Below, piece by piece: positions 3,745-59,495 of a stretch of 59,618 nt of DNA. The notes under the pieces are model-generated. The model ran no database searches, had not been told where the DNA came from, and saw nothing but the letters and a program-made list of their open reading frames with translations. Origin of the DNA: Candidatus Omnitrophota bacterium (lineage in GTDB: Bacteria; Omnitrophota; Gorgyraeia; JABMRN01; RBG-13-46-9); contig CP070780.1 of NCBI GenBank assembly GCA_020346285.1, positions 164,265 through 223,882 of the forward strand, in the 5' to 3' direction. The position numbers and the translations under genes were made by a program. Within the stretch, counting starts at the first letter, position 1. Every line of letters begins with the position of its first letter.

Positions 3745-4743
3745 ATGAGCAAAAAAAAGGTCTTGGTTACCGGCGGAGCGGGTTTTATCGGCAGTCATTT
3801 AGTTAGCCGTCTTCTTGAGGACGGGCACGACGTGACGGTTATCGATAATTTCTCTACCGGCAGGCCGGAGAACCTCACGCATCAAAAAAACAACAGGAAC
3901 CTCCGGCTTATTGAAAAAGATATATCGGATTTTAATGCCATGAAACAATATTTCGATGGCATTAAAATCGTATTCCATCTAGCAGCATTGGCCGACATAG
4001 TTCCTTCGATTGTTAACCCGGCAGGGTATTACAGGTCTAATGTTACCGGGACATTTTGCGTTGCCGAGGCCTGCCGCCTGTCAGGGGTTGAAAAGCTCCT
4101 TTACGCCGCGTCTTCCTCTTGCTACGGAATGCCTCGCACGTATCCGACTGCCGAGGCCTCCGAAATCAATCCGCAATACCCTTACGCGCTTACGAAATAT
4201 TTAGGCGAGGAAACCCTCTTACATTGGGGCAAGGTATATAAGTTGCCGGTTATTTCCCTCAGGCTGTTTAATGTTTATGGTCCCCGTTCCCGCACCTCAG
4301 GGACATACGGGGCGGTTTTCGGGGTATTCCTGGCACAACAGCTTAACAATAAGCCATTTACCATTGTGGGTGACGGTAACCAAACGAGGGATTTTATCTA
4401 TGTTTCCGATGTAGTCGAGGCCTTTATTAAAGCTGCATTTTCAGATGTAAAAAATGAGATTTTTAATGTGGGCTCGGGAAATCCCCAGAGCATAAATAAG
4501 CTGGTTTCTCTTTTACGGGGGGATAAGATTCACATTCCTAAAAGGCCGGGCGAGCCGGACTCGACCTGGGCCGATATCAGCAAGATACAAAAGGTGCTCG
4601 ATTGGCAGCCAAAGGTCTCATTTTGCGAAGGTATAAAGAAGATGCTGAAAAATATAGATTATTGGCAGGATGCCCCTGTATGGACTCCTGAAAAAATACA
4701 AGAGGCTACCAGGGATTGGTTTGAATATTTAGCAAAGGAGTAA
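3745..4743 (+). CDS. NAD-dependent sugar epimerase/dehydratase (extended SDR)
   Basis: [12 protein letters not shown], catalytic YALTKYLGE (YxxxK), LRLFNVYGPR. 332 aa. Substrate not assignable. Confidence 0.75.
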   Translation: MSKKKVLVTGGAGFIGSHLVSRLLEDGHDVTVIDNFSTGRPENLTHQKNNRNLRLIEKDISDFNAMKQYFDGIKIVFHLAALADIVPSIVNPAGYYRSNVTGTFCVAEACRLSGVEKLLYAASSSCYGMPRTYPTAEASEINPQYPYALTKYLGEETLLHWGKVYKLPVISLRLFNVYGPRSRTSGTYGAVFGVFLAQQLNNKPFTIVGDGNQTRDFIYVSDVVEAFIKAAFSDVKNEIFNVGSGNPQSINKLVSLLRGDKIHIPKRPGEPDSTWADISKIQKVLDWQPKVSFCEGIKKMLKNIDYWQDAPVWTPEKIQEATRDWFEYLAKE

Positions 4744-4745
4744 CG

Positions 4746-6278
4746 ATGGATCCGAAAATAACAAAAAAAATAAAAACACTGAATGCGCTAACAAAAATTA
4801 TATCCGACTTTAAGAAAAAAGGAAAAAGGGTCGTCCAGTGCCACGGTGTATTTGACCTTGTCCATCTTGGACACATAAGGCATTTTAATTTAGCGAAAAA
4901 AGAAGGCGATGTCCTTGTTGTTACGATTACAAAGAATAAGTATGTTAAAAGGGGCCCCGGCAGACCTATTTTTAATGAGCATTTACGGGCGGAGACGCTA
5001 GCGAGTTTGGCTATTACCGATTATGTGTGTATTATTGATGCGCCTACCGCTACCGAATCTATCAAGGCCTTGAAACCCGATATTTACGCCAAGGGTATTG
5101 ATTATAAGAGAAAGGAAAAAGACATAACTGGTAAAATTTACGAAGAAGAAGAAGCGGTAAAAACGGTCGGGGGGCGGCTCGTATTCACCGACGATATTAC
5201 GTTTAGTTCTTCTAAATTAATCAGCGATTATCTCGACGTGTACCCTCCCAGGACCATTAAATATTTAAAGGCAATCGCAAAGCGCTATCCGATAGATTTC
5301 ATAACCGACAAATTACATTCGCTTAAGAGCTTGAAAGCCTTAGTCATAGGGGATGCCATTGTCGACCAATATCATTACTGTGTACCCATGGGCAAATCCT
5401 CCAAAGAGCATCTGATTGCAAATCGTTATTTATCAGAAGAATCCTTCGCCGGCGGCAGCCTGGCAACAGCAAACAATATAGCCAACCTTTGCGGAAAAGC
5501 CGATTTATTGACAGTGTTGGGGAAGGAAGCTTCCTTTCAAGATTTTATTAAAAGCAAATTAAGCCCTAACATCAAGCCTCTGTTTTTCTACCGACCTGAA
5601 GAGAACACTATTGTGAAGAGAAGATTTGTTGCCAAAGATACAAACCGGAAACTCTTCGAAATCTGCTATATGAAAGGCGAGGATATTTCCGGGCAGGAAG
5701 AGGCAAAAATATTGAATCAGCTTAAAAAAACAATCAAGAACTATGACTTGGTTGTTGTTTCAGATTTTGGACACGGGCTTTTAACAAAACCGATAATTAA
5801 ACTTATCTGCCAAAAAGCGAAATATCTTGCTTTAAACGTGCAGACGAATAGTGCGAACATAGGTTTTAACCTTGTAACAAAATACCCGCGCGCAAATTGC
5901 GTATGTATTGACCAAATGGAACTACGTTTCGCCGCACATGACAGATCTAACAATTTACGAACGCAGGCTAAGAAAATATATAAAGAGCTTAAATGTCAAC
6001 ATATTATTACTACCTGCGGCGCATATGGTTCCCTCTGCTATTCAAAATCGGGCGGTTTTCACGAGACGCCGGCTTTTTCCTATCGCGTTGTTGACGCAAT
6101 AGGTGCAGGGGACGCATTTTTCGCTTTTGTGGCACCTTGTTTTGCAAAAGGTATGCCGCAGGATTTGGTTTCTTTTATAGGCAATGCCGTGGGTTCTCTG
6201 GCGGTCCAGATAGTATGTAACAGGGAGCCGATTGAATTTGTTGACCTGATTAAATTTATTACAAGGTTGTTAAAATGA
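4746..6278 (+). CDS. bifunctional cytidylyltransferase-fold nucleotidyltransferase (N-terminal) / PfkB sugar kinase (C-terminal); HldE-like with reversed domain order
   Basis: N-terminal HxGH motif CHGVFDLVHLGHIRHF. C-terminal PfkB signature DAIGAGDAFFA. RBS aaggag. Followed, with an ATGA overlap, by a GmhA-like gene. Confidence 0.75.
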   Translation: MDPKITKKIKTLNALTKIISDFKKKGKRVVQCHGVFDLVHLGHIRHFNLAKKEGDVLVVTITKNKYVKRGPGRPIFNEHLRAETLASLAITDYVCIIDAPTATESIKALKPDIYAKGIDYKRKEKDITGKIYEEEEAVKTVGGRLVFTDDITFSSSKLISDYLDVYPPRTIKYLKAIAKRYPIDFITDKLHSLKSLKALVIGDAIVDQYHYCVPMGKSSKEHLIANRYLSEESFAGGSLATANNIANLCGKADLLTVLGKEASFQDFIKSKLSPNIKPLFFYRPEENTIVKRRFVAKDTNRKLFEICYMKGEDISGQEEAKILNQLKKTIKNYDLVVVSDFGHGLLTKPIIKLICQKAKYLALNVQTNSANIGFNLVTKYPRANCVCIDQMELRFAAHDRSNNLRTQAKKIYKELKCQHIITTCGAYGSLCYSKSGGFHETPAFSYRVVDAIGAGDAFFAFVAPCFAKGMPQDLVSFIGNAVGSLAVQIVCNREPIEFVDLIKFITRLLK

Positions 6279-6850
6279 GGGATGTTATCAGAGAAAATCG
6301 CCGGAGATTGAAAGAATTGTTTGACGGTGTTATTGCAACCAATGCCGAAGATACTGCTTTTGCCCTGGATGAGGCCATACATAACTCAATAAAGATGATT
6401 ATTGAACAGGCCGCCGCCGGCGGGAAGCTTCTTTTTATCGGCAATGGTGCAAGTGCTTCTATTGCAAGCCACATGGCGGTCGATTTCTGGAAAAATGCCT
6501 GTATACGGGCAATTGCCTTTAATGACAGTTCTCTGCTTACCTGTATTAGTAACGATTACGGCTATGAGCATGTGTTCGAGAAGCCGATTGAGATGTTTGC
6601 CGGGCCGGCCGATACCCTGATTGCGATTAGCAGTTCAGGTCAGTCAAAGAATATCCTCTGCGGGGTGTCCGCAGCGAAGAAAAAAGGCCTAAAGGTCCTG
6701 AGCCTTTCAGGGTTTAATAAGGATAACCCCTTAAGGGAGGCGGGGGATATAAATTTTTATGTGCCGTCTAAAAGCTATGGCCATGTGGAGGTAGTCCATC
6801 TTTCCATTTGCCACTTGCTTGTTGATATGATTATAGAGAAGAATGGATAA
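6275..6850 (+). CDS. gmhA: SIS-domain sugar-phosphate isomerase (GmhA-like phosphoheptose isomerase)
   Basis: LLFIGNGASASIASHMAVDF and AISSSGQSKNIL resemble the GmhA motifs GNGGS...H and ISTSGNS. 191 aa. ATGA overlap with the kinase/nucleotidyltransferase gene. Confidence 0.7.
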   Translation: MRDVIRENRRRLKELFDGVIATNAEDTAFALDEAIHNSIKMIIEQAAAGGKLLFIGNGASASIASHMAVDFWKNACIRAIAFNDSSLLTCISNDYGYEHVFEKPIEMFAGPADTLIAISSSGQSKNILCGVSAAKKKGLKVLSLSGFNKDNPLREAGDINFYVPSKSYGHVEVVHLSICHLLVDMIIEKNG

Positions 6851-7910
6851 ATACAAAATCGATAGCCAAAAACTTATCTACCATGTTCCCAGGGTACAAG
6901 AATGGCTGGAAGGCGAGGCTATCTATCCAATATATATGGAGATAAGTCCAACCGGGACATGTAACCACAGGTGCACGTATTGCGGTTTAGATTTTATGGA
7001 ATACCAGCCCCGATATTTAGAGACCGACATATTAAAGGAGAGGCTCTCAGAATTAGGGAAGCTGGGTTTAAAAAGTATTATGTACGCCGGGGAAGGGGAG
7101 CCGCTTTTACATAAGGATATAAAAGATATAATTAAGTATACAAAAAATTCAGGGATCGATACGGCAGTAACTACAAATGGGGTATTATTTAAAAGGGAAA
7201 TCGCCGATAATACCCTTGGCTATATGGAATGGATTAAGGTAGGCCTTGATGGAGCGACCCGGGAGACCCACGCAAAAATACACCGGTGTAGCGGCGATGA
7301 TTTTGATAAAACCCTTAGTAATATAATATATGCCGCTCGATTAAAGAGAAAAGAAAAGTATGCCTGCGCCCTCGGTATGCAGTTTTTATTGTTACCCGAG
7401 AATAGCCACGAAGTAGTTGCTTTAGCCAAGATGGCCAGGGATATGGGCCTCGATTACCTGGTGGTAAAACCTTATTCACAGCATATTCAAAGTAAGACGA
7501 CAATGTACTCATCTCTTAAATATAGCGATTATGCGTATCTTGCCGATGAGTTGGCGAAATTCAGTACGGCTGATTTCAACATTATATTCAGGATACATAC
7601 GATGAAAAAATGGGACGAGAAACGCCGAAATTATAAGCATTGCCTTGCGCTTCCGTTCTGGTCGTATATCGACGCCGGAGGCAATGTCTGGGGATGCAGC
7701 GTGTATCTTGGCGATAAAAAGTTTCTATACGGCAATATTTATGAGGAATCTTTTCAAAAGATCTGGGAGGGCAAAAAACGCTCACAGTCGCTTCGTTGGA
7801 TTGAAGAAGGGCTTGATATCTCCGGTTGCAGAGTCAACTGTAGGATGGATGAGATAAACGAGTATCTTTGGGAATTAAAAAATTTACCCGAACACGTGAA
7901 TTTTATATAA
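6843..7910 (+). CDS. radical SAM enzyme with Cys-rich C-terminal region
   Basis: CNHRCTYCG (CxxxCxxC) near the N-terminus. GEGEPLL glycine-rich SAM motif. C-terminal cysteines GCSVY...GCRVNCRMDE. Confidence 0.8.
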   Translation: MDKYKIDSQKLIYHVPRVQEWLEGEAIYPIYMEISPTGTCNHRCTYCGLDFMEYQPRYLETDILKERLSELGKLGLKSIMYAGEGEPLLHKDIKDIIKYTKNSGIDTAVTTNGVLFKREIADNTLGYMEWIKVGLDGATRETHAKIHRCSGDDFDKTLSNIIYAARLKRKEKYACALGMQFLLLPENSHEVVALAKMARDMGLDYLVVKPYSQHIQSKTTMYSSLKYSDYAYLADELAKFSTADFNIIFRIHTMKKWDEKRRNYKHCLALPFWSYIDAGGNVWGCSVYLGDKKFLYGNIYEESFQKIWEGKKRSQSLRWIEEGLDISGCRVNCRMDEINEYLWELKNLPEHVNFI

Positions 7911-8750: not shown

Positions 8751-9695
8751 ATGAGAAACGCATATGTATCAGCTTTATATAATTTAGCTAAACACGACAA
8801 GCGGATTTTTGCTTTGGTGGCAGATAACGGCGCGATCGTTTATGATAAATACCGCCAGGATTTTCCGGAAAGATTTTTTAATTTTGGCATTTCTGAGGCT
8901 AATATGATAAGCGTTACAGCGGGACTGGCGGCCTGCGGTAAAATCCCTTTTGCCTATACTATCTCGTGTTTTATTACCATGAGGGCTTTTGAGCAGGTGA
9001 GAAACGATGTATGCCTGCAGAACATGAATGTCAAACTCGCTGGTACAGGTGCTGGTTTTGTGTATAGCAATCTGGGGCCCACTCATCACGGTACCGAAGA
9101 CCTGGCCCTTATGCTGGCCCTGCCGAATATGACGGTATTTTCTCCCGCAGACGCCTTAGAATCAGAAAAAGTTACATTAAAAGCAGCCGAGATTAACGGC
9201 CCTGTATATATACGCCTTGCGACAGGAAAAACCCCTGAAGTTTATGAGAAGGACTATGATTTTCAAGTAGGTAGGGGTGTAATCTTAAGGGAAGGGAGCG
9301 ATGTTTCAGTTATTACAACCAGCAGTATAACCCATGAAGTTATGAAGGCCGTGGATGAGGTGAGAAATTCAGGCATATCGGTCAGATTAATTAACATGCA
9401 TACATTAAAGCCGATCGATAAAGAAATTATTCTTGAGTCTGCATCTCGAACAGGGGCTGTTTTAACTGTTGAAGAGCATACCATTCATGGCGGTTTGGGT
9501 AGTTCCGTTGCAGGGATTATACTTGAGGGCAATAATGGATCCGTCAGGTTCAAGCGGTTAGGCTTAAACAGCGTGTTTGCTTCAGGATACGGCTCATATC
9601 AGGATATAAAGGAGGAAAATGGGTTCTCAAAAGGAGACATCACGAGAGAAATAATAAATCTCTACGAAGGCAAGAAAGGCAAATCCCATGGGTAA
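8751..9695 (+). CDS. transketolase, C-terminal (pyrimidine-binding plus C-terminal domain) subunit
   Basis: FNFGISEANMISVTAGLAACGKIPF and RAFEQVRNDV. 314 aa. Directly follows the N-terminal subunit. Confidence 0.9.
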   Translation: MRNAYVSALYNLAKHDKRIFALVADNGAIVYDKYRQDFPERFFNFGISEANMISVTAGLAACGKIPFAYTISCFITMRAFEQVRNDVCLQNMNVKLAGTGAGFVYSNLGPTHHGTEDLALMLALPNMTVFSPADALESEKVTLKAAEINGPVYIRLATGKTPEVYEKDYDFQVGRGVILREGSDVSVITTSSITHEVMKAVDEVRNSGISVRLINMHTLKPIDKEIILESASRTGAVLTVEEHTIHGGLGSSVAGIILEGNNGSVRFKRLGLNSVFASGYGSYQDIKEENGFSKGDITREIINLYEGKKGKSHG

Positions 9696-10350
9696 GCTAT
9701 TGAGTATTATCACCTCTTTACATAAAAATACAAAAAGAGATTATATAAAGAGAATGCTGGATGAAAAGGCAGCATGCTCAAGGGTAGCAAGAAGGTATGG
9801 CAGGAATTACTGGGACGGGAATAGGAGATACGGTTACGGCGGCTATAAATACGACGGACGCTGGGAAGTTGTGGCAAAGAAACTCATAGAAGTATACCGC
9901 CTTAAAAATAATGCCAAAATTTTAGATGTAGGCTGTGGAAAAGGCTTTTTATTATATGAATTTAAAAAACTCCTGCCCCAAGCAATATTAAAAGGTTTTG
10001 ATATATCACAGTATGCCATAGAGAATGCAAAGGAAGAGATTCGCGATAATCTCTTCATTCACCGGGCACAGGATCCTTATCTCTTCAAAGATAAGGAGTT
10101 TGATCTTGTTCTATCATTAACGACCCTTTATAACATCTGCATAGATGACTTGAAGTCCGCATTGCAGGAAGTGGAGAGGGTCGGCAAAAATAAATATGTA
10201 ACTATGGAAAGCTACCGGAACGAGAGAGAATTGTTTAACTTGCAGTGCTGGGCACTGACATGTGAGTTATTTTTCAGGCCGGAAGAGTGGAGATGGTTAT
10301 TTGACGTATTTGGCTATACCGGAGACTACGAGTTTATATTTTTTGAATAA
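9688..10350 (+). CDS. class I SAM-dependent methyltransferase
   Basis: Motif I ILDVGCGKGFLL. 220 aa. 8-nt overlap with the transketolase C-subunit gene. Confidence 0.75.
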   Translation: MGKLLSIITSLHKNTKRDYIKRMLDEKAACSRVARRYGRNYWDGNRRYGYGGYKYDGRWEVVAKKLIEVYRLKNNAKILDVGCGKGFLLYEFKKLLPQAILKGFDISQYAIENAKEEIRDNLFIHRAQDPYLFKDKEFDLVLSLTTLYNICIDDLKSALQEVERVGKNKYVTMESYRNERELFNLQCWALTCELFFRPEEWRWLFDVFGYTGDYEFIFFE

Positions 10351-15923: not shown

Positions 15924-15924
15924 A

Positions 15925-30182: not shown

Positions 30183-30193
30183 ACAATTAATAC

Positions 30194-51306: not shown

Positions 51307-51320
51307 AAAGGGAGGACGGA

Positions 51321-51944
51321 GTGAAAAATGCTTCTGTGCACAAGAGAGCCATAATAGAGAAGTGCGTAAAAATTGGCCGTGGTACCAAGGTGTGGGACAA
51401 TGTCCATATAAGAGAAAAAGCCGAGATAGGCAAAAATTGCATTATAGGAGGCAAGACCTATATTGCCTATAATGTTAAAATCGGTAACCTTGTAAAAATA
51501 AATTCATTTGTTTATGTATGCACCGGAGTCACAATAAAAGACAAGGTCATGATATCAGCAGGGACAGTTTTCACGAACGACAAATTTCCGCGTGCAGTCA
51601 GGGGGAATTCAGAAAAACTTTTTACATCAGATCCCACCAAAGAAACGGAAGAGACCACCGTCGAAGAAGGCGTTACTATAGGCGCAGGGGCGGTCATAGG
51701 TTGCGGAATAACATTGGGCAAATATTGCATGGTGGGCATGGGCTCTGTCGTAACGAAAAATGTTTTACCGTATAGCCTTGTTTACGGCGTGCCGGCGAAG
51801 ATAAGGGGGTACGTTTGCCGATGCGGATACCCCCTCGGGATAAAGAAAAATTCGGCGATTTGCAACAATTGCGAAAATAGATATTTTGTTTCCAGAACAA
51901 AAAGCGGCATAAAGGTAGAGCCACAAAAGAAAACCCGAAAATAG
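51321..51944 (+). CDS. hexapeptide-repeat N-acetyltransferase (WbpD-equivalent by context) with a 4-Cys C-terminal tail
   Basis: Beta-helix repeats (IGRGTKVWDNVHIREKAEIGKNCIIGG...). Tail CRCGYPLGIKKNSAICNNC. I chose GTG 51321 because gggagg lies 6 nt upstream; ATG 51288 is the alternative. Confidence 0.7.
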   Translation: MKNASVHKRAIIEKCVKIGRGTKVWDNVHIREKAEIGKNCIIGGKTYIAYNVKIGNLVKINSFVYVCTGVTIKDKVMISAGTVFTNDKFPRAVRGNSEKLFTSDPTKETEETTVEEGVTIGAGAVIGCGITLGKYCMVGMGSVVTKNVLPYSLVYGVPAKIRGYVCRCGYPLGIKKNSAICNNCENRYFVSRTKSGIKVEPQKKTRK

Positions 51945-52068
51945 GATATTAATATATGAAAACCGACAACAAAACAAAAACATATTTTGAAGGGAAAACG
52001 GCGATTTCGATACTTCCTACGATAGTCCCCAGAAGCTTACGGATATTGTAAGGAGATTGTCCTGAGGG

Positions 52069-52082
52069 TTTCCTATAGGAAA
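52069..52082. promoter_or_regulatory. 14-nt perfect palindrome TTTCCTATAGGAAA overlapping the presumed RBS of the 2-epimerase gene
   Basis: Read directly. It lies 9 nt upstream of the ATG at 52091, in a 146-nt gap that is one of the few real gaps in the locus. Confidence 0.4.
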
Positions 52083-52090
52083 GAATAAAA

Positions 52091-53212
52091 ATGGCAAAAA
52101 AGATTATGTTTGTTTTCGGTACGCGGCCGGAAGTTATAAAGATGGCTCCGGTTATAGCGCTTGCAAAAAAATCCGGAAAGTTAGAACCGATCGTTTGCGT
52201 TACGGCTCAGCACCGTTATCTGCTGGATCAGGCGCTGGCCGAATTTGATATTAAGCCTGATATTGACCTCGACCTGATGAGGCCCAATCAGACCCTGGGC
52301 GGGATTATATCGCGCGTTATGCGCGGAATGAGGGATGTCTATCGCAATGTCCGGCCTGATTTGGTTCTCGTGCAGGGTGATACCACCACGGTTTTTGCCG
52401 CCTCTTTAGCGGCGTATTACGAAAATATAGACGTAGGCCACATAGAAGCGGGGCTGCGTTCCGGCGATGACCGGAATCCGTTTCCCGAAGAGATAAATCG
52501 GCGTTTCGTTTCGCTTATCGCAAGATATAATTTTTGCCCGACATCGGGCGCAAAAGAGAATCTATTAAAGGAGTCCGTAGATCCCAAAAAAATATTTGTA
52601 ACAGGTAATACCGTGATAGATGCTCTGGAGGTAATTCTTAAAGATATCAGAGATAGGAAACCGGCCGTGAATGGCATTAAGCCCAAATTTTTGCAAAAAC
52701 CATACGCCCTTATTACCGGCCACCGGAGGGAGAATTTTAACGGGGGAATAAAAAATGTATGCACGACTATCAGATCCCTTGCAAAAAGATATGCAGATTT
52801 TCACTGGTTATGGGCGGTGCACCTCAATCCGAATGCGAGAGACATTGTATTCCAGACGCTCGATGGTTTGTCAAATGTCAGATTGATAGAACCTGTACCA
52901 TATAGAGAATTTATATATTTGATGGAACATGCTAAATTTATCGTCTCGGATTCGGGGGGCGTGCAGGAGGAAGCGCCGTCTTTGGGAAAAACTGTTTTTG
53001 TAACAAGGGTTTGCACGGAACGGCCGGAAGCTCTTGAGTCGGGAACATCGGTTCTGGTCGGAACGGATCCGGATAATATGACAAAGCACGTGGAAGAGTT
53101 ACTAGAGGGCGCTCGCTCGCGCAAAGTGGCAAAAAATCCTTTTGGCGATGGAAAAGCCGCTGAAAAAATCATAGATGTTATCGTTAGAGGGAGTTGTAAG
53201 GAATTTAAATAA
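52091..53212 (+). CDS. UDP-N-acetylglucosamine(uronate) 2-epimerase, non-hydrolysing (WecB/WbpI family)
   Basis: MFVFGTRPEVIKMAPV, VQGDTTT, HIEAGLRS, SDSGGVQEEAPSLGK. 373 aa. Confidence 0.85.
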   Translation: MAKKIMFVFGTRPEVIKMAPVIALAKKSGKLEPIVCVTAQHRYLLDQALAEFDIKPDIDLDLMRPNQTLGGIISRVMRGMRDVYRNVRPDLVLVQGDTTTVFAASLAAYYENIDVGHIEAGLRSGDDRNPFPEEINRRFVSLIARYNFCPTSGAKENLLKESVDPKKIFVTGNTVIDALEVILKDIRDRKPAVNGIKPKFLQKPYALITGHRRENFNGGIKNVCTTIRSLAKRYADFHWLWAVHLNPNARDIVFQTLDGLSNVRLIEPVPYREFIYLMEHAKFIVSDSGGVQEEAPSLGKTVFVTRVCTERPEALESGTSVLVGTDPDNMTKHVEELLEGARSRKVAKNPFGDGKAAEKIIDVIVRGSCKEFK

Positions 53213-53242: not shown

Positions 53243-53965
53243 ATGGATAGCAACATAGTAGTCGTCATACCGACATATAATGAGAAAGATAACATTGTAA
53301 GATTGATAGAAGAAATCAATCTACTTAAATTACCCATTGATATCCTTATCGTGGACGATAATTCACCTGATGGGACAGGGGACCTTGTGGCGTCGGCCAA
53401 AAAGACAAAGCCAAATTTGAATATCATACATAGAAAAAGAAAAGAAGGCTTAGGGCCTGCCTATATCGAAGCTTTTCGTTATATACTTAATAAAAAAAAC
53501 TATGATTATGTTGTCCAAATGGATGCGGATTTTTCACATGACCCAAAAGACATTCCTCGGTTACTGGAAGCGATTGAAGGATGCGGTGTTGTCGTAGGTT
53601 CGAGATATACAAAAGGAGGAAAGGTATCTGACACATGGAACCGTTTAAGAAAGTTTATATCAAAAAGTGGCAACCTTTATGCAAGGTGCATTACCGGCTT
53701 AAGGGTCAATGATTGCACTGCCGGATTCAAATGCTATAGAAAAGGAGCCCTGGAGTCATTAGATTTGAACAGGATGTTTTTGAATGGTTACGGATTCCAG
53801 GTGCAGATATTATATGAATTGAAAAAAAATAATTGCACGTTATGTGAGATACCTATCTTTTTTGATGACAGAAGAAGAGGCACCTCTAAAATGACTTTTA
53901 ACATTGTGTTGGAAGCATTTTTTTCTTTAGCGCTGATGAGGCTAAAAGAGAAATTTTTTGCCTAA
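53243..53965 (+). CDS. GT2-family polyprenol-phosphate sugar synthase (DPM1/Ppm1-like)
   Basis: VVVIPTYNEKDNI, VDDNSPDGTG, MDADFSHDP, GSRY. 240 aa. Confidence 0.8.
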   Translation: MDSNIVVVIPTYNEKDNIVRLIEEINLLKLPIDILIVDDNSPDGTGDLVASAKKTKPNLNIIHRKRKEGLGPAYIEAFRYILNKKNYDYVVQMDADFSHDPKDIPRLLEAIEGCGVVVGSRYTKGGKVSDTWNRLRKFISKSGNLYARCITGLRVNDCTAGFKCYRKGALESLDLNRMFLNGYGFQVQILYELKKNNCTLCEIPIFFDDRRRGTSKMTFNIVLEAFFSLALMRLKEKFFA

Positions 53966-54990
53966 TGAGGATACTATTTTTAACCATAGGTGATGAAACC
54001 ATCGCCAGTAGCAGGGTAAGGGTATATGGATATCTGCCGTTTTTGGCAGGGGAGGGTATCGGATATAGAATTCTCATCTTTACATCCAAGGCTAAGTGCA
54101 GACGAATACTTACATTAAAAAAGGATAATTTTCTACAACACATTTTTGAAATTTTCTATAAAATTTATATAATCGCAAAACTTCTTGTTCTGTCAAAAAA
54201 ATACGAAATAGTGTATGTACAGAAAGTAATATTGCCGAAAGCACTCTGGAAGATATTGCGAAAGCTTAACAAAAGAGTCATATTTGATTTTGATGATGCT
54301 ATTTATATTTATAAGGATATAAGTTATTTATTGAAAGACGCCGCGTGCGTTGTGGTTTCAAACAAAATCCTGAAGGAACGCGCCCTTGGATACAATAAAA
54401 GGATTTATGAATTGATAAGCCCGGTCAGCGTAAATAAACGCTTTCCAGCGCCCAAAGACGGTTCCGTTACGCTGGGATGGATCGGTTCGCCCGAGACGTC
54501 GAGATATCTTTTACCTCTAATGCCCGTATTTAGAGACTTGAAGGAAAAATTTGAAAATCTTGAAATAGAGTTTATGGGCGTAGCCCCTAATAAAGATTTT
54601 GCGTTATTGAACATAGGCATAAAAGATTGGTCGCTGGAAGCGGAGAAGGAATACCTAAAGAGACTTGCTGTCGGGATAATGCCTCTTAAGGACGATGAAT
54701 GGTCTCGGTCAAAGGCCGGCTATAAATTACTTCTTTACATGTCCAGAGGTATAGCCTGTGTGGCAAGCCCCGTAGGGATAAATATGAAAATTATAGAAAA
54801 CGGAAAAAGCGGTTTTTTCGCTACATCCAAAGATGAATGGTTTGAGAGATTATCAGTGTTGCTCAAGGACGCGAAGTTAAGAGGAAAAATAGCTGAAAGG
54901 GGAAGGATTCGCGCAAAAGAGCACTTTTCTTACGATAAAGTATTTCCCAAATTTTTGGAAATTCTCTATTTAACTGAAAATAGCACGTAA
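53965..54990 (+). CDS. GT-B glycosyltransferase (GT1/GT4-like)
   Basis: C-terminal pattern GIMPLKDDEWSRSKAGYKLLLYMSRGIACVASPVGINMKIIENGKSGFF. TAATG overlap with the upstream gene. Confidence 0.7.
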   Translation: MRILFLTIGDETIASSRVRVYGYLPFLAGEGIGYRILIFTSKAKCRRILTLKKDNFLQHIFEIFYKIYIIAKLLVLSKKYEIVYVQKVILPKALWKILRKLNKRVIFDFDDAIYIYKDISYLLKDAACVVVSNKILKERALGYNKRIYELISPVSVNKRFPAPKDGSVTLGWIGSPETSRYLLPLMPVFRDLKEKFENLEIEFMGVAPNKDFALLNIGIKDWSLEAEKEYLKRLAVGIMPLKDDEWSRSKAGYKLLLYMSRGIACVASPVGINMKIIENGKSGFFATSKDEWFERLSVLLKDAKLRGKIAERGRIRAKEHFSYDKVFPKFLEILYLTENST

Positions 54991-54991
54991 T

Positions 54992-56287
54992 ATGAAGAAA
55001 TTCTTAATCCTGCTATTTATTTTTGCACTGGCATTTTCCATACGGTTTGCTTATCTGTCTGCGAATCAGAGACAAATAGAATCAGATGAATGCTTATATG
55101 ACAGCCTAGCTATAAAACTGATAGAATTAAAGGGGTATGTAGGTTCAGAGGGTGTTCCTACCTCAAACAGACCGCCATTATACGCGGTTTTTCTGGCGCT
55201 CGTATATACAATATGCGGCCATGATTATTTTGCTGTGTGCCTCGTGCAGGCATTTTTGGGTTCCCTTGCCGTATGCTTCTTTTATTTAATAGCGGAGAAA
55301 ATTTTTAATGAACCCACTGCTATTCTCACCGGCATTTTTTCCTCCTTTTATATGGGTTATGTTTTCTATACGAATTTTTTATTAACGGAAACATTTTTTT
55401 CATTTATTCTAGCCGCAATAATACTCATAATAGTTAACATAAAACAGTCAAACGTAATTAGATTCTCGCTCCTCGGTTTGCTCTGTGGTCTTTTGACGCT
55501 TACTAAGTCAAGCGGTTTTTTCGTTTTTCTCATAGCACCTGTCGCGTTATGGGTTAAAACCAAGCGTGAAAAAGATTTTTTAAAAAAGATATTTTCTTCC
55601 TCCTTAGCATTGCTCTTATGTTTTGGACTTGTAATCCTTTCGTGGACTGTAAGAAACTACAAGGTACATGGCAAAATTATACCTATTTCTACAAATGGCG
55701 GGTTAAATATGTATCAAGCGGTAAGGCCGGCATATGGGAAAATACCTGAAATGGGACCTCGGGGAGACTCGATAGCGGAAAAAGGATTTGTGATCTCGAA
55801 TGAAACGGAAAGAAATGATTACTTCTTTAATATGGCACTGCAGGCATACAGGGAGGATGGCCTGGCAAGGATTTTAAAATCTTTTATTATCAGATTTTTG
55901 TTTTTCTGGGGTGCAATCGACTGGAATGTCACAGAAGGGGATATTATAAACTACCATTATGTTTTTATATTACCTTTTGCCCTTTTGGGAACTATATTTT
56001 CGTTTAAAAATAGAAAAGAAATTTTTGTCATATTACTTGTCATTTTATATTTTACATCGCTTATTTTATTATTTCAGGGTTGCGCCCGTTTTAGAATGCC
56101 CATAGACGGGTATATAATAATACTCGGATGTTACGGGATTTATGAATTGATAAACAGGCAGAGGGAAAAAATATATCTGGTTGCTTTAGTAGGGATTTAT
56201 TTTTTCTTTACATATATGTTATATCGACATTCATTGTATATTAAATATTTCATAAAAAGTGTAATGGAAAAAATAGGTTTATGGTAG
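54992..56287 (+). CDS. GT-C-type membrane glycosyltransferase (ArnT/PMT_2-like)
   Basis: About 11-12 hydrophobic segments. The first loop carries an acidic motif (ESDECLYD). Positioned after a polyprenol-P sugar synthase-like gene. Confidence 0.55.
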   Translation: MKKFLILLFIFALAFSIRFAYLSANQRQIESDECLYDSLAIKLIELKGYVGSEGVPTSNRPPLYAVFLALVYTICGHDYFAVCLVQAFLGSLAVCFFYLIAEKIFNEPTAILTGIFSSFYMGYVFYTNFLLTETFFSFILAAIILIIVNIKQSNVIRFSLLGLLCGLLTLTKSSGFFVFLIAPVALWVKTKREKDFLKKIFSSSLALLLCFGLVILSWTVRNYKVHGKIIPISTNGGLNMYQAVRPAYGKIPEMGPRGDSIAEKGFVISNETERNDYFFNMALQAYREDGLARILKSFIIRFLFFWGAIDWNVTEGDIINYHYVFILPFALLGTIFSFKNRKEIFVILLVILYFTSLILLFQGCARFRMPIDGYIIILGCYGIYELINRQREKIYLVALVGIYFFFTYMLYRHSLYIKYFIKSVMEKIGLW

Positions 56288-57484
56288 GATGAGTCTCTCG
56301 TCAATAATTTTTTCGGCGATTATCTCCGCTAATGTTTCTGCCCCACGTTCTGTATAATGGACATCGTCGCGAAAATTCCGTAAATCCTTGCTGACGGCGT
56401 TGTCAGCATCAATAAGGATGACGCCTTCTTTTGAAGATACCTCTTTTACGGTTTTATTAAAAAGTTTCATAGCCTGGCAGAAGGATTGGGGAGAAGGATA
56501 TTCTCTTTGAATAAAATTGAGTCGCATATTACTAATGGTCCTGCCGAAATAGAGTAGCCGCAGTTCATCTTCCCGCATGTCTTCCTTATATAAAGACGGC
56601 TGGGTTACCAGAATTATATCAGATTTGTTATTTTTGATATATTTTACAAGTTTTGTAAGATTTTTCTTAAATGCCGGTAAGGATATGTACCTTTTTACGG
56701 AATAATCTCTTTCCAAAAATCTTAGTTTGCTATACCAGGCATTTAACGGCGTTTCAAAATATCGCAGGATATGTTGCTCAAAAGTAGGGGATTTTGCCGC
56801 GTTTATTGCCGAGCCATAGAAGTGCGTCCAGAGATCGTTATATTCGCCCATGGCGAAATCAACCGGCGAGAAAGACCTTGCCAGATCGTTTATAGCGTGC
56901 ATTACTATAATCAAATCCGGATTCCAGTCTTCGTAATATGTTACATAGCTTATCAGGGAATGCTTGGTAGTATACCAGTTTGTGCCAGCATTCAGGACTT
57001 CAATATCAACCGATGGATAATAATTCTGTAAGATTCTATGTAGCGTGTTGGGATAACGCTTTTCCACGGGCAAAGCGAAGTTTCCTGTCGTGGAGCCACC
57101 GAGGCATATTATGCGGAATGTATTATCATTTTTGTCAATCGATTGATTTTTAAATTGTTTAAACTGATTTTGAAGAAACGGGTCAAATAGATATTCCCGG
57201 GTGTAATAATAACGTAACGAAAAAACAAAATACAGAAAAACAATCAAGATAAAAAAAGGAATTATGGAAAACAAAAATTTTTTCCATCCGATCCGCTTAA
57301 CGCATACACATATAATTATAGGCAGGAAAAAAAACGAAGCCATTATAGCGAGAAATATAAAATATTTTACAGAATACCGAAATATTATCGGAGGGAAAGA
57401 CCTGTGGAATAACCAGCCCGCATAAATGAACGCATAAACCAGATAATATACTAAGAGAAAAAGGCGTTTATAGAGATGTTTCAT
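56279..57484 (-). CDS. membrane-anchored SGNH/GDSL-type hydrolase or acyl-transfer protein (same motif set as 47972..49093)
   Basis: Several N-terminal hydrophobic segments. SGNH-like blocks ICLGGSTTGNF, LNAGTNWYTT, MHAINDL, DDVHYTERGAE. Its 3' end overlaps the convergent + gene by 9 nt. Confidence 0.65.
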   Translation of the reverse strand: MKHLYKRLFLLVYYLVYAFIYAGWLFHRSFPPIIFRYSVKYFIFLAIMASFFFLPIIICVCVKRIGWKKFLFSIIPFFILIVFLYFVFSLRYYYTREYLFDPFLQNQFKQFKNQSIDKNDNTFRIICLGGSTTGNFALPVEKRYPNTLHRILQNYYPSVDIEVLNAGTNWYTTKHSLISYVTYYEDWNPDLIIVMHAINDLARSFSPVDFAMGEYNDLWTHFYGSAINAAKSPTFEQHILRYFETPLNAWYSKLRFLERDYSVKRYISLPAFKKNLTKLVKYIKNNKSDIILVTQPSLYKEDMREDELRLLYFGRTISNMRLNFIQREYPSPQSFCQAMKLFNKTVKEVSSKEGVILIDADNAVSKDLRNFRDDVHYTERGAETLAEIIAEKIIDERLILP

Positions 57485-59495
57485 TTTTAATCCACAAAGG
57501 CCAAAAATCTTTTATATGTCCGTCACGATAAAGAATTTGTAAAGAGAATTGTCTATCTTTTTTTATCTGACTGAAATTTCTTATTCGATTGCGGATATAA
57601 TCGGTTATAACTACCAAATATGGAAATACGCCCTTATGCTCTTCAAGTAAAAATTCATCGTTTTCAGACAAAATCCACCTTGGTATATCATAATGCAGGC
57701 TTACATTTTGAGACATATCTTTCGTTTCGCCCTCTCCGAATATATGTGCCACATCCCTCGTTTCCAGATAAAGTTTTAAATCCAGCATAAAAATATCAAG
57801 TTCCTTTGGGGTAAAATAGTTTTTTATCATTATCCTTAGCTCATCGAGAGCAATCTTAATAGATTCTTTGTAATGGTTAGAAAGTACCAATGTTTTATAT
57901 TTCCTAAGAAGATTATCTCCCAATTTACCCGTGCATAATAAATTGTAATTTTCCTGCTTGTTAAAAAAATTAACTAATTCATTCCTAGAGGAAAATAACT
58001 CATCTTCTGTCTCCTGTAAAAATGATTTATATATGGCATAAAAAGAGGGATAACAAGAAACTTTATCGTGTATATTAAAAATCCATCGTGCAACATCTAA
58101 ATTATGATCGGTAAGAAACTTTCTTATTGGAAACATCTCAATTGAGTTGGCAAAGACAGTAATTATCAAAGCAAGCCCCCGTAAATTTACGTAATCTTCA
58201 TACGGCATATTTTTTGTACCGACAACAACCTCCTCAATCTCAAATATTTTAGTATCATTTATTTGGGAAAAACATCTTTGAACAATTCGATGCTTAATAA
58301 TATATTGATACTTTTTAGCGGTTTCTTGGGAAGCTATCGGCGCGCCTCTTAAGGCCATCAGCGTATATATTACCGTATCTTGTACGCCTGAATTTAATAC
58401 ACGGGATACCGTATCAAGAAAACTCTCTTTGGTTTCTTCTGGTAGATTAAGAATAAGTTCTGTAGCGGTACTTTCATTTATTCCCTTTATAACTTTTTTT
58501 TGAAACTTAACAAAATCTTCAAATGGTATATTTATACGTTTAATATTTTTTAGTACTTTAGGAGTGAGCGTTTGCAAGGCAATGGCCGGCGTAAAGTTAT
58601 ATTTTAAAATGGAAAGCAACTCCAGGAGCTTACCGGTATTTTTCCCGGAATTTACATTAACGATCTTAGGCCAATCATATTTATCCTGCATACCTCTTAT
58701 TACCCTGGCGATTTCAAAGTCTTCTTTGAAAAGGCTAAAGTTGGTATTTGCCATAACTAAAATAATATTATGCTGGCCTGCAAAACGTTTACCTAAATAT
58801 TCCATGTCTTTTTTGAAATTGTCCACAGATTGAAAAATTACTTTAGAGAAATAATCATTACTTGTATGGCAATAGGTACATTTAAAAGGACATCCCCTTT
58901 GGGTCTGCACGTAAGGATGAAATCCCTCGTTGAGAAACTGATTAAAGAATCCTTCAGCATATATAGCGCCAAAAGCATTTAAAGAGTCTAATTTTGGCAA
59001 CGGGTCTTTTGTTTCAATTAGCATATCCTGCTTTTCGCTAATAGAATAGGTGCCAGCCGAAGGGTTTCTTTTTATATCTTCTATTTTCTCTCCTTTGATA
59101 AAACGCGATACTATCTCGGTAAAGGGGATCTCGCCGTCAAAACTAACGCACACATCGATAAAGTTATTCTTTTTGAGATATGCAAACCTTTCTTCCGAAG
59201 ATAAATAAAGATTTGGCCCTCCGGCAACAATAAGGCATTCCGGATTAGCCGTTTTTACGCGTTGTGCCATATAAAGATTCATCTCGCTATTCCAGACATA
59301 TTGGGTTATACCCAATATGTCTGGTTTCCATTTCTTAACCTTCAGAAATTTGAGAGGGTCCTTAAATATCCTTATGTCAAATTTATTCCCTAACCTGTTT
59401 TTAAGATAATATGCTATAAGGCCGATACCCAGGGGAACAGTATTGGTATGAACTCCCATAGTCATGTGGTTTAAATCTATTAATGCTATCTTCAT
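57468..59495 (-). CDS. B12-binding-domain radical SAM protein (class B type), long form
   Basis: KIALIDLN...ILGITQYVW...IVAGGPNL followed by QRGCPFKCTYCHTS. 675 aa. Overlaps the downstream SGNH gene start by 17 nt. Confidence 0.8.
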   Translation of the reverse strand: MKIALIDLNHMTMGVHTNTVPLGIGLIAYYLKNRLGNKFDIRIFKDPLKFLKVKKWKPDILGITQYVWNSEMNLYMAQRVKTANPECLIVAGGPNLYLSSEERFAYLKKNNFIDVCVSFDGEIPFTEIVSRFIKGEKIEDIKRNPSAGTYSISEKQDMLIETKDPLPKLDSLNAFGAIYAEGFFNQFLNEGFHPYVQTQRGCPFKCTYCHTSNDYFSKVIFQSVDNFKKDMEYLGKRFAGQHNIILVMANTNFSLFKEDFEIARVIRGMQDKYDWPKIVNVNSGKNTGKLLELLSILKYNFTPAIALQTLTPKVLKNIKRINIPFEDFVKFQKKVIKGINESTATELILNLPEETKESFLDTVSRVLNSGVQDTVIYTLMALRGAPIASQETAKKYQYIIKHRIVQRCFSQINDTKIFEIEEVVVGTKNMPYEDYVNLRGLALIITVFANSIEMFPIRKFLTDHNLDVARWIFNIHDKVSCYPSFYAIYKSFLQETEDELFSSRNELVNFFNKQENYNLLCTGKLGDNLLRKYKTLVLSNHYKESIKIALDELRIMIKNYFTPKELDIFMLDLKLYLETRDVAHIFGEGETKDMSQNVSLHYDIPRWILSENDEFLLEEHKGVFPYLVVITDYIRNRIRNFSQIKKDRQFSLQILYRDGHIKDFWPLWIKNETSL

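Follow-up and report, generated by a model that had tools for sequence, protein, structure and literature searches.

Eight predicted radical SAM enzymes in a probable cell-envelope glycan supercluster of an uncultured Omnitrophota bacterium

What are eight radical S-adenosylmethionine (SAM) genes doing among the genes for surface sugars? The question is raised by a 59,618-nucleotide stretch of DNA from Candidatus Omnitrophota bacterium (GenBank assembly GCA_020346285.1, contig CP070780.1, positions 164,265 to 223,882 of the forward strand), which was analysed over its whole length and is called the window below; coordinates count from its first letter. To our knowledge, radical SAM chemistry on sugars (C-methylation of unactivated carbons, anaerobic oxidation, deoxygenation and C-C coupling) has been characterised only in antibiotic pathways. 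Our analysis makes it likely that the window is one contiguous cell-envelope glycan supercluster of an uncultured anaerobe and that all eight proteins, named rSAM1 to rSAM8 here, are nucleotide-sugar or glycan tailoring enzymes, each in a mobile, conserved pathway cassette. Seven of the eight genes gain glycan evidence from outside the window. Orthologues of rSAM1, rSAM2, rSAM4, rSAM5 and rSAM7 lie in syntenic sugar cassettes of other phyla, and relatives of rSAM3 are fused to glycosyltransferase family 2 (GT2) or RmlC domains; rSAM8 is similar to the cobalamin C-methylases TokK and CysS and has a homologue beside a heptose cassette. An earlier note on this DNA had held the radical SAM genes to be an integral part of a surface-glycan locus, and this retention of sugar-gene neighbours in distant phyla, together with the fusions, bears that view out. 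Direct observation covers the gene identities and cluster motifs, the predicted folds, the synteny and the domain fusions, and these are reported as such in the following sections.

Eight radical SAM proteins in a nearly gap-free glycan locus

The eight genes, with the first residue of the CxxxCxxC motif in each product, are as follows (matches to the Protein Data Bank, PDB, are sequence matches with their expect values, E).

6843..7910, + strand: rSAM1; CNHRCTYC at residue 40; PF04055 and PF13186; one twitch-like auxiliary cluster, DesII-like predicted fold
10369..11445, + strand: rSAM2; CNHNCSYC at residue 41; PF04055; second twitch-like radical SAM protein, Cys 273, 291, 331 and 335 laid out as in rSAM1
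13079..14044, + strand: rSAM3; CNTRCIMC at residue 40; PF04055; seven-Cys SPASM domain, C-terminus aligning with the auxiliary-cluster domain of BtrN
14046..15923, + strand: rSAM4; CRGACTFC at residue 266; 625-aa B12-binding protein with PF04055 and PF02310; best PDB matches MgmA and AprD4
20770..22239, + strand: rSAM5; CPFDCIYC at residue 215; B12-binding, PF04055 and PF02310; PDB matches MgmA, TokK and AprD4
32249..33670, + strand: rSAM6; CPFNCAYC at residue 209; B12-binding, between the genes for a PseC-like protein and PseB; best PDB match AprD4 (E = 9.7e-15)
41623..43068, + strand: rSAM7; CPFQCIYC at residue 198; B12-binding, PF04055 and PF02310, linked to nonulosonic acid genes; best PDB match AprD4 (E = 2.2e-22)
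57468..59495, - strand: rSAM8; CPFKCTYC at residue 202; 675-aa TokK/CysS-like B12-type protein

All eight open reading frames (ORFs) are present where the earlier note had placed them, with one motif each, and CxxxCxxC occurs in no further ORF of 80 aa or more in the window, whatever the frame. The Radical_SAM domain PF04055 scored 53.8-97.3 bits in all eight against a gathering score of 29.5, and the motif did not vary among the homologues of rSAM1, rSAM5 and rSAM7, 120 for each protein. Each of the eight is predicted to cleave SAM to the 5'-deoxyadenosyl radical. The note had assigned a B12-binding domain to five of them; this held at the Pfam threshold for rSAM4-rSAM7 (PF02310, 42.7-77.7 bits against 32.1), whereas rSAM8 scored 27.2 bits, below the threshold, yet aligned with TokK over residues 21-472 (about 450 residues; E = 1.3e-30) and also matched CysS (E = 1e-26). 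Cobalamin binding and methyl transfer by rSAM4-rSAM8, which are of class B type, are predicted from sequence, these functions having no diagnostic motif. The SPASM-like tail reported for rSAM3 was recovered (PF13186, 47.9 bits against 21.5) but is not confined to that protein, because Pfam also called SPASM in rSAM1 (27.9 bits). Although rSAM2 had no Pfam SPASM match, rSAM1 and rSAM2 share a four-Cys layout for one auxiliary cluster.

Pairwise identity among the eight proteins was 21-29%, so they represent eight separate families without a recent expansion, and recent paralogy as the origin of the high gene number was rejected. Scores against the named sugar radical SAM equivalogs were well under the cut-offs (BlsE TIGR04466, 47 bits against 400; AprD4 NF033070, 49-100 against 500; viperin NF038283, 43-68 against 180). 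The same was true, in the best cases, of BchE (195 against 481), HpnJ (182 against 578; the second-best NCBIfam match of rSAM5 and rSAM7), the ladderane B12 radical SAM protein (156 against 360) and the tungsten-cofactor maturase (93 against 380); HpnR and the RiPP maturases stayed under their cut-offs too, as did KedN5 (112 against 700). None of the eight proteins therefore falls in a lipid-, cofactor- or peptide-modifying family; such a placement, with conserved non-glycan contexts, would by the earlier note have refuted its glycan reading.

Radical SAM genes make up eight of the 56 genes in the window (14%), and their expected genome-wide share is, by our own estimate, a few percent at most. 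Chance clustering is ruled out because the synteny is conserved elsewhere. Contrary to what the note had supposed, the density is not exceptional: among the comparison loci (labelled L with a number), five radical SAM genes of B12 type lie within 21 kb of L003 (Omnitrophota), and the same length of L085 (Nitrospinota) carries six radical SAM genes. L001, the closest relative of the region on the side of the pseudaminic acid (Pse) genes, has one in 21 kb. Counts ranging from one to six per 21 kb in relatives indicate that the content varies between strains, as expected for surface-glycan cassettes.

The setting is almost gap-free. The 56 ORFs cover about 99% of the window, 54 of them lie head-to-tail on the + strand, and the largest gap on that strand is 153 nt; the tight junctions noted earlier beside the radical SAM genes are real, as are the counts of five methyltransferases (class I or FkbM) and four DegT aminotransferases, which Pfam reproduced. 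Equivalog-level NCBIfam matches were obtained for RmlB, RmlD, PseB, PseI and a WecB-type UDP-GlcNAc 2-epimerase, and two TIGR04372 glycosyltransferases and a WbuC cupin also scored above their cut-offs. Together with GT2, GT1 and GT-C glycosyltransferase genes and a HepA/MsbA/PglK-like exporter, these matches substantiate the assignment to a surface-glycan locus. The modules in the window are those for dTDP-rhamnose, an ADP-heptose-like sugar, pseudaminic acid and a 2,3-diamino-uronic-acid-like sugar, besides glycosyltransferases and an ATP-binding cassette (ABC) exporter. The locus extends left of 3745 (a sugar dehydrogenase and rml-type genes, 1-2912) and past the right window end. Gene-wise GC content is a mosaic of 34-48% around an overall 40%: DegT aminotransferase 2 reaches 48%, while rSAM3, rSAM4 and methyltransferase MT2 lie near 36%, rSAM6 at 37% and rSAM8 at 34%. 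This mosaic is consistent with modules gained from different sources. Scans of the window with Rfam and for tRNAs found no cobalamin riboswitch, tRNA or other RNA family.

The heptose cassette and the rSAM3-rSAM5 block

The genes around rSAM1 and rSAM2 form the most notable unit. Besides the two radical SAM genes they are the following, where SDR stands for short-chain dehydrogenase/reductase, ThDP for thiamine diphosphate and EPS for exopolysaccharide.

3066..3686, + strand: MarR-type EPS-associated regulator-like protein at the head of the cassette (HTH_24; TIGR04176, 77 bits against a cut-off of 88)
3745..4743, + strand: SDR sugar epimerase/dehydratase, GalE/HldD-like, first gene of the cassette (Pfam Epimerase; all NCBIfam matches sub-threshold)
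4746..6278, + strand: HldE-like heptose-1-phosphate adenylyltransferase/heptose-7-phosphate kinase (CTP_transf_like at residues 33-137, PfkB at 199-488)
6275..6850, + strand: GmhA-like SIS-domain sugar-phosphate isomerase (SIS_2; gmhA, 115 bits against 209)
7868-8740 and 8751-9695, + strand: N and C subunits of a split transketolase-like ThDP enzyme (Pfam; NF004559)
9688..10350, + strand: class I SAM methyltransferase MT1 (Pfam)
11463..12554, + strand: DegT aminotransferase 1 (PF01041, 336 bits)
12558..13082, + strand: WbuC-family cupin (TIGR04366, 136 bits against 42)

The best 120 matches of rSAM1, with lengths of 355-364 aa, share 65-83% identity with it; their sources are metagenome-assembled genomes (MAGs) of Omnitrophota, Planctomycetota/Brocadiaceae, Elusimicrobia, Nitrospinota and Actinobacteria. 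Cys 40, 44, 47, 267, 285, 329 and 333 are invariant in 120 homologues. Neighbourhoods were compared in 43 metagenome loci, each count being restricted to loci with room on the relevant side. GmhA-/HldE-like genes lay within 2.5 kb upstream of rSAM1 in 19 of 27 such loci, transketolase subunits within 3 kb downstream in 21 of 32, and a second twitch-type radical SAM gene was present in 18 of the 20 loci with at least 5 kb downstream. The conserved unit runs SDR-HldE-GmhA-rSAM1-split transketolase-methyltransferase-rSAM2-aminotransferase and occurs in Planctomycetota, Nitrospinota, Nitrospirota and on a plasmid. L091 and L143 keep a longer order intact, from the helix-turn-helix regulator through HldE, GmhA, rSAM1, both transketolase subunits, MT1, rSAM2, an aminotransferase slot and WbuC to rSAM4, MT2 and a glycosyltransferase; the regulator keeps its place ahead of the cassette in L091, L122 and L143. 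Most of the cassette is also found in L084, a Brocadiaceae MAG, and in L086, a Planctomycetota contig with a GT9 heptosyltransferase gene and a Pse operon alongside; GT9 heptosyltransferase genes adjoin rSAM1 in both L085 and L086. Orthologues of rSAM2 (488-596 bits) and of MT1 (311-408 bits) were identified in L084, L086, L091, L117, L122 and L143, and SDR orthologues (480-558 bits) precede HldE-like genes in many loci.

Cassette slots are conserved while the enzyme families that fill them change. At 12971-15017 of L085 a pyruvate dehydrogenase (PDH)-E1-type alpha/beta ThDP pair takes the transketolase slot, and at 9893-11206 of L143 a class III aminotransferase takes the DegT slot after rSAM2. 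The transketolase pair itself is much more divergent in many cassettes (about 200 and 90 bits) than in the window, where the N half scored 283 and the C half 240 bits against the NF004559 full-length cut-off of 488. The HldE-like protein has its adenylyltransferase domain N-terminal and its PfkB kinase domain C-terminal (rfaE_dom_II at residues 19-159 and rfaE_dom_I at 190-489, both under cut-off), the opposite order to that in Escherichia coli HldE. A separate small CTP_transf_like gene lies upstream in several related loci (L084, L143).

Two further loci bear on mobility and on experimental access. The gene set of window positions 3745-22239 recurs in Ca. Magnetomonas plexicatena (L141; complete genome, CP049016.1, 1327801-1349270) scattered over both strands, which suggests a mobile or recombination-prone glycan island; genes for PemK/MazE, HicAB, PIN and ParE toxin-antitoxin systems and a resolvase are interspersed there. 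The 133-kb plasmid pDCAR1 of a cultured sulfate reducer, Solidesulfovibrio carbinolicus DSM 3852 (L144, NZ_CP026539.1, 66846-97907), carries an rSAM1 orthologue (55% identity) together with HldE-like, SIS and split transketolase genes and with pseB, pseC and pseF; this 31-kb locus has at least four radical SAM genes.

The AlphaFold2 model of rSAM1 (mean predicted local distance difference test score, pLDDT, 86.4) had DesII as its top PDB fold (E = 1.4e-16, template modelling score, TM, 0.70), followed by SuiB and BlsE and then SkfB, anSME and viperin. Catalysis by DesII, BtrN and BlsE begins with the removal of a hydrogen from a sugar carbon, and DesII and BtrN give keto products; DesII acts on TDP-4-amino-4,6-dideoxyglucose or TDP-quinovose and BtrN on 2-deoxy-scyllo-inosamine. 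The likeness to BtrN lies in a CxxxCxxC motif plus four C-terminal Cys in rSAM1 and rSAM2, with spacings of x17, x43 and x3 in rSAM1 and of x17, x44 and x2 in BtrN (auxiliary cluster C169, C187, C232, C235), and in the flanking GNV..C...GNI....IW motif, which BtrN shares. As with DesII and BtrN, the two genes stand among nucleotide-sugar genes and next to an aminotransferase gene. However, identity to DesII and BtrN is only 12-17% and no family cut-off is reached; the presumed substrate is of ADP-heptose type rather than a TDP-hexose or an aminocyclitol, the partner is a transketolase-like ThDP enzyme, and the genes lie in a surface-glycan locus of anaerobes, not in an actinomycete antibiotic cluster.

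Downstream, rSAM3, rSAM4 and rSAM5 share a block with these genes (TMD-NBD, transmembrane domain-nucleotide-binding domain):

15853..17124, + strand: class I methyltransferase MT2 (Pfam; true start probably near 15925)
17082..18386, + strand: TIGR04372 glycosyltransferase a (222.6 bits against 45)
18445..19686, + strand: methyltransferase of NDP-hexose C-methyltransferase type, TylC3-like (Methyltransf_13/14, Pfam 171 and 73 bits)
19688..20773, + strand: DegT aminotransferase 2 (orthologues of 515-526 bits beside rSAM5 orthologues in L141 and L142)
22252..23427, + strand: TIGR04372 glycosyltransferase b (215 bits against 45)
23436..24674, + strand: FkbM-family methyltransferase (Pfam)
24692..26464, + strand: fused TMD-NBD ABC exporter, HepA/MsbA/PglK-like (HepA 373, MsbA 309 and PglK 233 bits, all sub-threshold)

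Few close relatives of rSAM3 were found, and three of the closest (41-46% identity) bear an N-terminal GT2 fusion; a more distant one bears an RmlC fusion. These fusions tie SPASM enzymes directly to glycan synthesis. Across the relatives P0363, P0365, P0366, P0506 and P0456, the fused forms comprise GT2 with radical SAM and SPASM domains, RmlC with the same two domains, and radical SAM and SPASM domains with a class I methyltransferase, architectures that appear to be undescribed. The spiro-SPASM family TIGR04321 is matched by rSAM3 in its SPASM half only (81 bits against 250), without the fused cytidylyltransferase, and the PseF-like protein of the window matches the cytidylyltransferase half. 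rSAM4 has orthologues of 894 bits in L091 and 1010 bits in L143, within the block WbuC-rSAM4-MT2-glycosyltransferase, and the MT2 orthologues scored 577 bits (L091) and 414 bits (L122). Homologues of rSAM5 at 53-58% identity occur in Ca. Magnetomonas and Magnetococcales; its orthologues in L141 and L142 adjoin DegT aminotransferase 2, the C-methyltransferase and the ABC exporter, whose L142 orthologue (871 bits) is next to rSAM5. In Magnetofaba australis (L140, LVJN01000019.1, 71892-93457) the neighbour of an rSAM5 homologue (54% identity) is an MptE-like/TPR protein, a Maf-type putative flagellin glycosyltransferase, so flagellin may be the glycan target in magnetotactic bacteria. A Polysacc_synt_2 dehydratase gene and a SPASM radical SAM gene are also present near that homologue.

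The pseudaminic acid module and the right end

rSAM6 and rSAM7 lie within a block of pseudaminic acid genes:

31126..32274, + strand: PseC-like DegT aminotransferase 3 (PF01041, 411 bits; PseC, 265 against 423.5)
33700..34728, + strand: PseB, inverting UDP-GlcNAc 4,6-dehydratase (469 bits against 408)
34704..35348, + strand: class I methyltransferase MT3 (Pfam)
35352..36098, + strand: CMP-nonulosonic acid synthetase, PseF-like (Pfam CTP_transf_3 only)
36247-37128, + strand: RmlD-like reductase (Pfam)
37091-38143, + strand: PseG-like UDP-sugar hydrolase (PseG, 141.5 bits against 153.6)
38140-39936, + strand: carbamoyltransferase, NodU/CmcH-type
39986-40555, + strand: hexapeptide acyltransferase
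40552..41616, + strand: PseI, pseudaminic acid synthase (457 bits against 340)
43011..44930, + strand: putative nonulosonic acid transferase, BFO_1060/Capsule_synth-like (75 bits against 200)
44935-46305, + strand: GT87-like membrane protein (Pfam; L001 orthologue, 590 bits)
46242-47264, + strand: conserved protein of unknown function (L001 orthologue, 596 bits)

The block resembles the Pse pathway of Campylobacter and Helicobacter in having equivalog-level PseB and PseI with PseC-, PseG- and PseF-like proteins in one place. It differs in five added, non-canonical genes (for two B12-type radical SAM enzymes, one methyltransferase, one carbamoyltransferase and one RmlD-like reductase) and in lacking a GNAT-type PseH, which the hexapeptide acyltransferase replaces. 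Carbamoyltransferase genes recur near rSAM5 and rSAM7 homologues in L027, L061, L084 and L142; we know of no described case of a carbamoylated nonulosonic acid.

Orthologues of rSAM7 (69% and 53% identity) lie between a PseF or PseI gene and a putative nonulosonic acid transferase gene, and in L001-L003 and many genome loci orthologues adjoin genes of these kinds. In a sample of 80 genome loci, all from MAGs of anaerobic lineages in both domains, sugar genes were found within 10 kb of the rSAM7 homologue in 53, and nonulosonic acid genes within 10 kb in 10 of the 22 closest. The AlphaFold2 model of rSAM7 (pLDDT 91.4) matched the folds of TsrM, MgmA, AprD4, CysS, OxsB and TokK, all with E values from 1e-25 to 1e-18, and Foldseek thus did not separate methylase from dehydratase. 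AprD4 comes from the apramycin pathway, where it serves as a 1,2-diol dehydratase on an amino sugar; it has a B12-type domain yet works without cobalamin. It is the best PDB sequence match of rSAM6 and rSAM7 and a top fold match, at about 20% identity and with 57-100 bits against the NF033070 cut-off of 500. The class B methylases (GenK, GenD1 and Fom3; TokK, CysS, TsrM and MgmA) have the same N-terminal B12-binding Rossmann domain followed by the radical SAM domain; sugar carbons are the methylation sites of GenK and GenD1, and the substrate of Fom3 is CMP-activated. Their NCBIfam scores here are far below the cut-offs, however, and the substrates in this locus would be surface-glycan precursors.

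rSAM8 has homologues of 388 bits beside the heptose cassette in L127 and of 274 bits in L058. It overlaps by 17 nt a GDSL/SGNH gene in the same direction, and the right end of the window reads:

47261-47971, + strand: GT2 glycosyltransferase (Pfam)
47972-49093, + strand: GDSL/SGNH protein (Pfam)
49097..53212, + strand: DegT aminotransferase 4, GFO/IDH/MocA oxidoreductase, hexapeptide acetyltransferase and WecB-type UDP-GlcNAc 2-epimerase
53243..56287, + strand: short GT2 (polyprenyl-phosphate sugar synthase-like), GT1 and PMT_2 GT-C glycosyltransferases
56279..57484, - strand: GDSL/SGNH protein overlapping rSAM8

The gene pattern at 49097..53212 resembles WbpB/E/D/I; the epimerase scored 431 bits against a cut-off of 210, and the other three genes are assigned at Pfam level or sub-threshold.

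The remaining genes lie at the left edge and between the exporter and the Pse block:

1..735, + strand: 3' part of a UDP-glucose/GDP-mannose dehydrogenase family gene (Pfam central and C-terminal domains), truncated by the window start
728-1174, + strand: rmlC-like isomerase (Pfam match only)
1175-1909, + strand: rmlA-like thymidylyltransferase (Pfam; RmlA, 264 bits against 361)
1923-2912, + strand: rmlB dTDP-glucose 4,6-dehydratase (RmlB, 443 bits against 365)
26474..27376, + strand: RmlD dTDP-4-dehydrorhamnose reductase (304 bits against 224)
27363..28683, + strand: NDP-sugar 6-dehydrogenase gene with a +1 frameshift in an A run near 27747-27752
28702..29247, + strand: adenosine 5'-phosphosulfate (APS) kinase, for supply of 3'-phosphoadenosine 5'-phosphosulfate in sulfation (PF01583, 192 bits)
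29244..31129, + strand: two SDR nucleotide-sugar epimerases/dehydratases, one TviC-like and one decarboxylase- or dehydratase-like

In the dTDP-L-rhamnose pathway RmlB and RmlD pass the equivalog cut-offs, whereas RmlA does not and the RmlC-like protein is matched by Pfam only. A frameshift at the window start was considered for the first gene and rejected, its frame being open from base 1 and simply running off the edge. The NDP-sugar 6-dehydrogenase is split into two overlapping ORFs by one surplus A in the run 'caaaat', and dropping one A restores RKGQIVVLESTTYPGTT; the frameshift is either a homopolymer error of the long-read assembly or a true slip-strand off-switch. No recognisable sulfotransferase was found in the locus despite the APS kinase gene, which hints at sulfated sugars and an unrecognised sulfotransferase, perhaps an ORF such as 46242-47264. 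APS kinase/ATP-sulfurylase genes recur in kindred loci rich in radical SAM genes (L141, 9285-9893; L084, 4283-6466).

Proposed chemistry, rival explanations and meaning

Substrates, reaction types and the order of steps are what we infer from this organisation. In the first module (3066-13082), predicted to work like the ADP-heptose pathway, the GmhA-like, HldE-like and SDR gene products would supply an ADP-heptose-type sugar. rSAM1 and rSAM2 would each abstract a carbinol hydrogen, converting an unactivated CHOH to a carbonyl or dehydrating a diol, as DesII, BtrN and AprD4 do. Both the neighbouring transketolase-like ThDP pair and the neighbouring aminotransferase would then use that carbonyl, the pair to attach a two-carbon unit, and MT1 would methylate the resulting sugar. 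Because a carbonyl from each of rSAM1 and rSAM2 is what their ThDP and aminotransferase neighbours need, the arrangement supports, without proving, a route to a C2-extended or C2-branched sugar that is aminated and methylated. The second module (13079-24674), which ends at the ABC exporter, would contribute the SPASM enzyme rSAM3, the B12-type enzymes rSAM4 and rSAM5, the TylC3-type C-methyltransferase, two more methyltransferases, a second aminotransferase and the two TIGR04372 glycosyltransferases. In the third (31126-44930), the pathway would make pseudaminic acid. Here rSAM6, rSAM7, the methyltransferase and the carbamoyltransferase would modify this nine-carbon acid, or its UDP- or CMP-linked intermediates, ahead of its use by a dedicated transferase. 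rSAM8, a relative of the iterative C-methylases TokK and CysS, with the SGNH protein beside it in a pair convergent with the rest, may add a further decoration. C-methylation by the B12-type enzymes is the default expectation, and the product may be multiply C-methylated, branched or chain-extended.

A more specific form of this scheme is put forward tentatively and is more likely wrong than right. Here the cassette would be a so far undescribed, oxygen-independent route to a higher-carbon or C2-branched amino sugar: a radical SAM enzyme would oxidise an unactivated carbinol of ADP-heptose to a carbonyl, the transketolase-type enzyme would add a two-carbon ketol to it and give a nine-carbon skeleton without a NeuB-type synthase, and the new keto group would then be aminated and methylated. 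The B12-type radical SAM enzymes would add C-methyl groups to that sugar and to pseudaminic acid, and this radical tailoring toolkit for cell surfaces would be shared by anaerobic bacteria and archaea of more than 10 phyla. As a two-subunit ThDP enzyme within a nucleotide-sugar tailoring cassette, the window pair resembles the ThDP-dependent two-carbon branching enzymes of deoxysugar pathways (YerE; the E1 alpha/beta-like pairs of the avilamycin and aldgarose pathways), and the pair in L085 is of PDH-E1 type. The window pair differs from them in its transketolase type, which takes a ketol donor and an aldehyde acceptor and does not depend on pyruvate, and may be an ordinary transketolase.

Several results weigh against the preferred reading of a glycan supercluster with tailoring radical SAM enzymes. 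None of the eight proteins reached a curated NCBIfam cut-off, the best names lying 2- to 10-fold under, and therefore no function transfers by homology. Among the heptose and Pse assignments, the GmhA-like (115 against 209 bits), HldE-like (163 against 521) and heptose epimerase (137 against 275) proteins scored below the equivalog cut-offs, as did the PseC- and PseG-like proteins, and no GmhB phosphatase gene was found in the window. For rSAM6 the glycan link consists of its own position and one weak homologue near PseF and PseG genes in L044, a weak external context. Moreover, three of the B12-type enzymes, rSAM6 and rSAM7 among them, match AprD4, a non-methylating, cobalamin-free enzyme, about as closely as they do methylases, or more closely. 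Genes for an initiating phosphoglycosyltransferase, Wzx, Wzy or a ligase are absent from the window, and the acceptor could be lipopolysaccharide, capsule or protein. Finally, our literature search on radical SAM enzymes with nonulosonic or pseudaminic acid, O-antigen or Omnitrophota, whose coverage was incomplete, found no description of a glycan locus rich in radical SAM genes.

Two alternatives concern what the enzymes do. The split transketolase could be an ordinary one that supplies sedoheptulose-7-phosphate to GmhA, without C2 branching or extension, in which case rSAM1 and rSAM2 would only epimerise, oxidise or deoxygenate an ordinary heptose. We find this doubtful yet a substantial possibility, since the two halves together (283 and 240 bits against 488) score like a genuine transketolase, a point against the scheme above, and organisms with small genomes may have no other source of sedoheptulose-7-phosphate. 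The PDH-E1-type pair found in the same slot of L085 cannot make that compound, however, the pair is much more divergent in many other cassettes, and it sits after rSAM1 rather than ahead of GmhA; on the routes to yersiniose, aldgarose and avilamycin, keto sugars receive C2 branches from E1-like ThDP enzymes. In the other alternative, the B12-type enzymes (rSAM6 and rSAM7 at the least) would not transfer methyl groups; they would be AprD4-like diol dehydratases that deoxygenate, or HpnJ/OxsB-like enzymes that contract a ring, so that the product would be deoxygenated or rearranged. Besides the sequence matches of rSAM6 and rSAM7, AprD4 had the highest TM-score (0.72) among the top matches of the rSAM7 model, HpnJ is a prominent NCBIfam name for rSAM5 and rSAM7, and the RmlD-like reductase of the Pse module could partner a dehydratase, as AprD3 partners AprD4. 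Against it, the cobalamin methylases TsrM, MgmA, CysS and TokK match the rSAM7 model at near-equal E values, rSAM8 aligns with TokK and CysS over its full length, MgmA is the best match of rSAM4 and rSAM5, and most characterised class B radical SAM enzymes are methylases. We judge this alternative unlikely, though deserving of attention.

Two others would take some of the radical SAM genes out of glycan synthesis. Some of the genes might be passengers with cofactor, lipid or peptide-maturation roles, inserted by chance in a recombination-prone locus, as the sub-threshold names (tungsten-cofactor maturase, BchE, HpnJ, P-methyltransferases) and the low GC content of rSAM3, rSAM4, rSAM6 and rSAM8 (34-37% against 40% overall) would allow. 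But those matches are 2- to 10-fold under the cut-offs, seven of the eight proteins have independent glycan links by synteny or fusion, each gene adjoins or overlaps sugar genes of its own orientation, and the window contains no precursor peptide or lipid genes; this explanation is scarcely credible. Nor is it at all probable, if slightly less remote, that 3745-26464 is a cluster for a secreted aminoglycoside- or nucleoside-like small molecule that is ABC-exported and merely lies beside glycan genes. The characterised relatives DesII, BtrN, BlsE, AprD4, TokK and CysS all come from antibiotic pathways, a multidrug-type ABC exporter ends the block and the window has no initiating transferase. 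However, two TIGR04372 glycosyltransferase genes lie inside the block, a MarR EPS-type regulator gene stands at its head, and GT9 heptosyltransferase, GT2 and PMT_2 genes flank rSAM1 orthologues in other loci. The best matches of the exporter (HepA, MsbA, PglK) are exporters of polysaccharides or lipid-linked glycans, the block runs with gaps of at most 153 nt into the rhamnose, Pse and uronic-acid genes, and the cassette occurs in more than five phyla at 65-83% identity, tiny-genome lineages included.

Radical SAM genes have been annotated in glycan-type regions of cultured bacteria, for example a pair in Campylobacter fetus and those with the TIGR04372 and spiro-SPASM families, and we know of none that has been characterised. 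TIGR04372, TIGR04396, the LA_3751/LA_3752 family and spiro-SPASM TIGR04321 are uncharacterised NCBIfam surface-carbohydrate families associated with Leptospira loci. In C. fetus, a pair of phase-variable MoaA/NifB/PqqE/SkfB-family genes appears in one listing (PMC6321876) next to methyltransferase, SDR and formyltransferase genes whose locus tags are adjacent. What our analysis adds is the cross-phylum cassettes, especially the heptose-rSAM1-transketolase-rSAM2 unit, the SPASM-glycosyltransferase fusions and a cultured test organism; the chemistry is plausibly new for surface glycans.

These results indicate that antibiotic-type radical chemistry is routinely built into the surface glycans of anaerobic, mostly uncultured lineages, among them Omnitrophota, Planctomycetota and anammox bacteria, Nitrospirota, Desulfobacterota, Candidate Phyla Radiation (CPR) bacteria and DPANN archaea. 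The rSAM1 family is a well-defined target, with 65-83% identity across phyla and a fixed heptose-transketolase context, and S. carbinolicus DSM 3852 is a cultured carrier that offers a usable experimental system. If the reading is true, these organisms would carry surface sugars that lie outside current glycan databases and mass-spectrometric search spaces, and the enzymes would be new tools for glycoengineering. It would also bear on phage and host recognition in episymbionts and on the demand for B12 and iron-sulfur clusters in tiny genomes.

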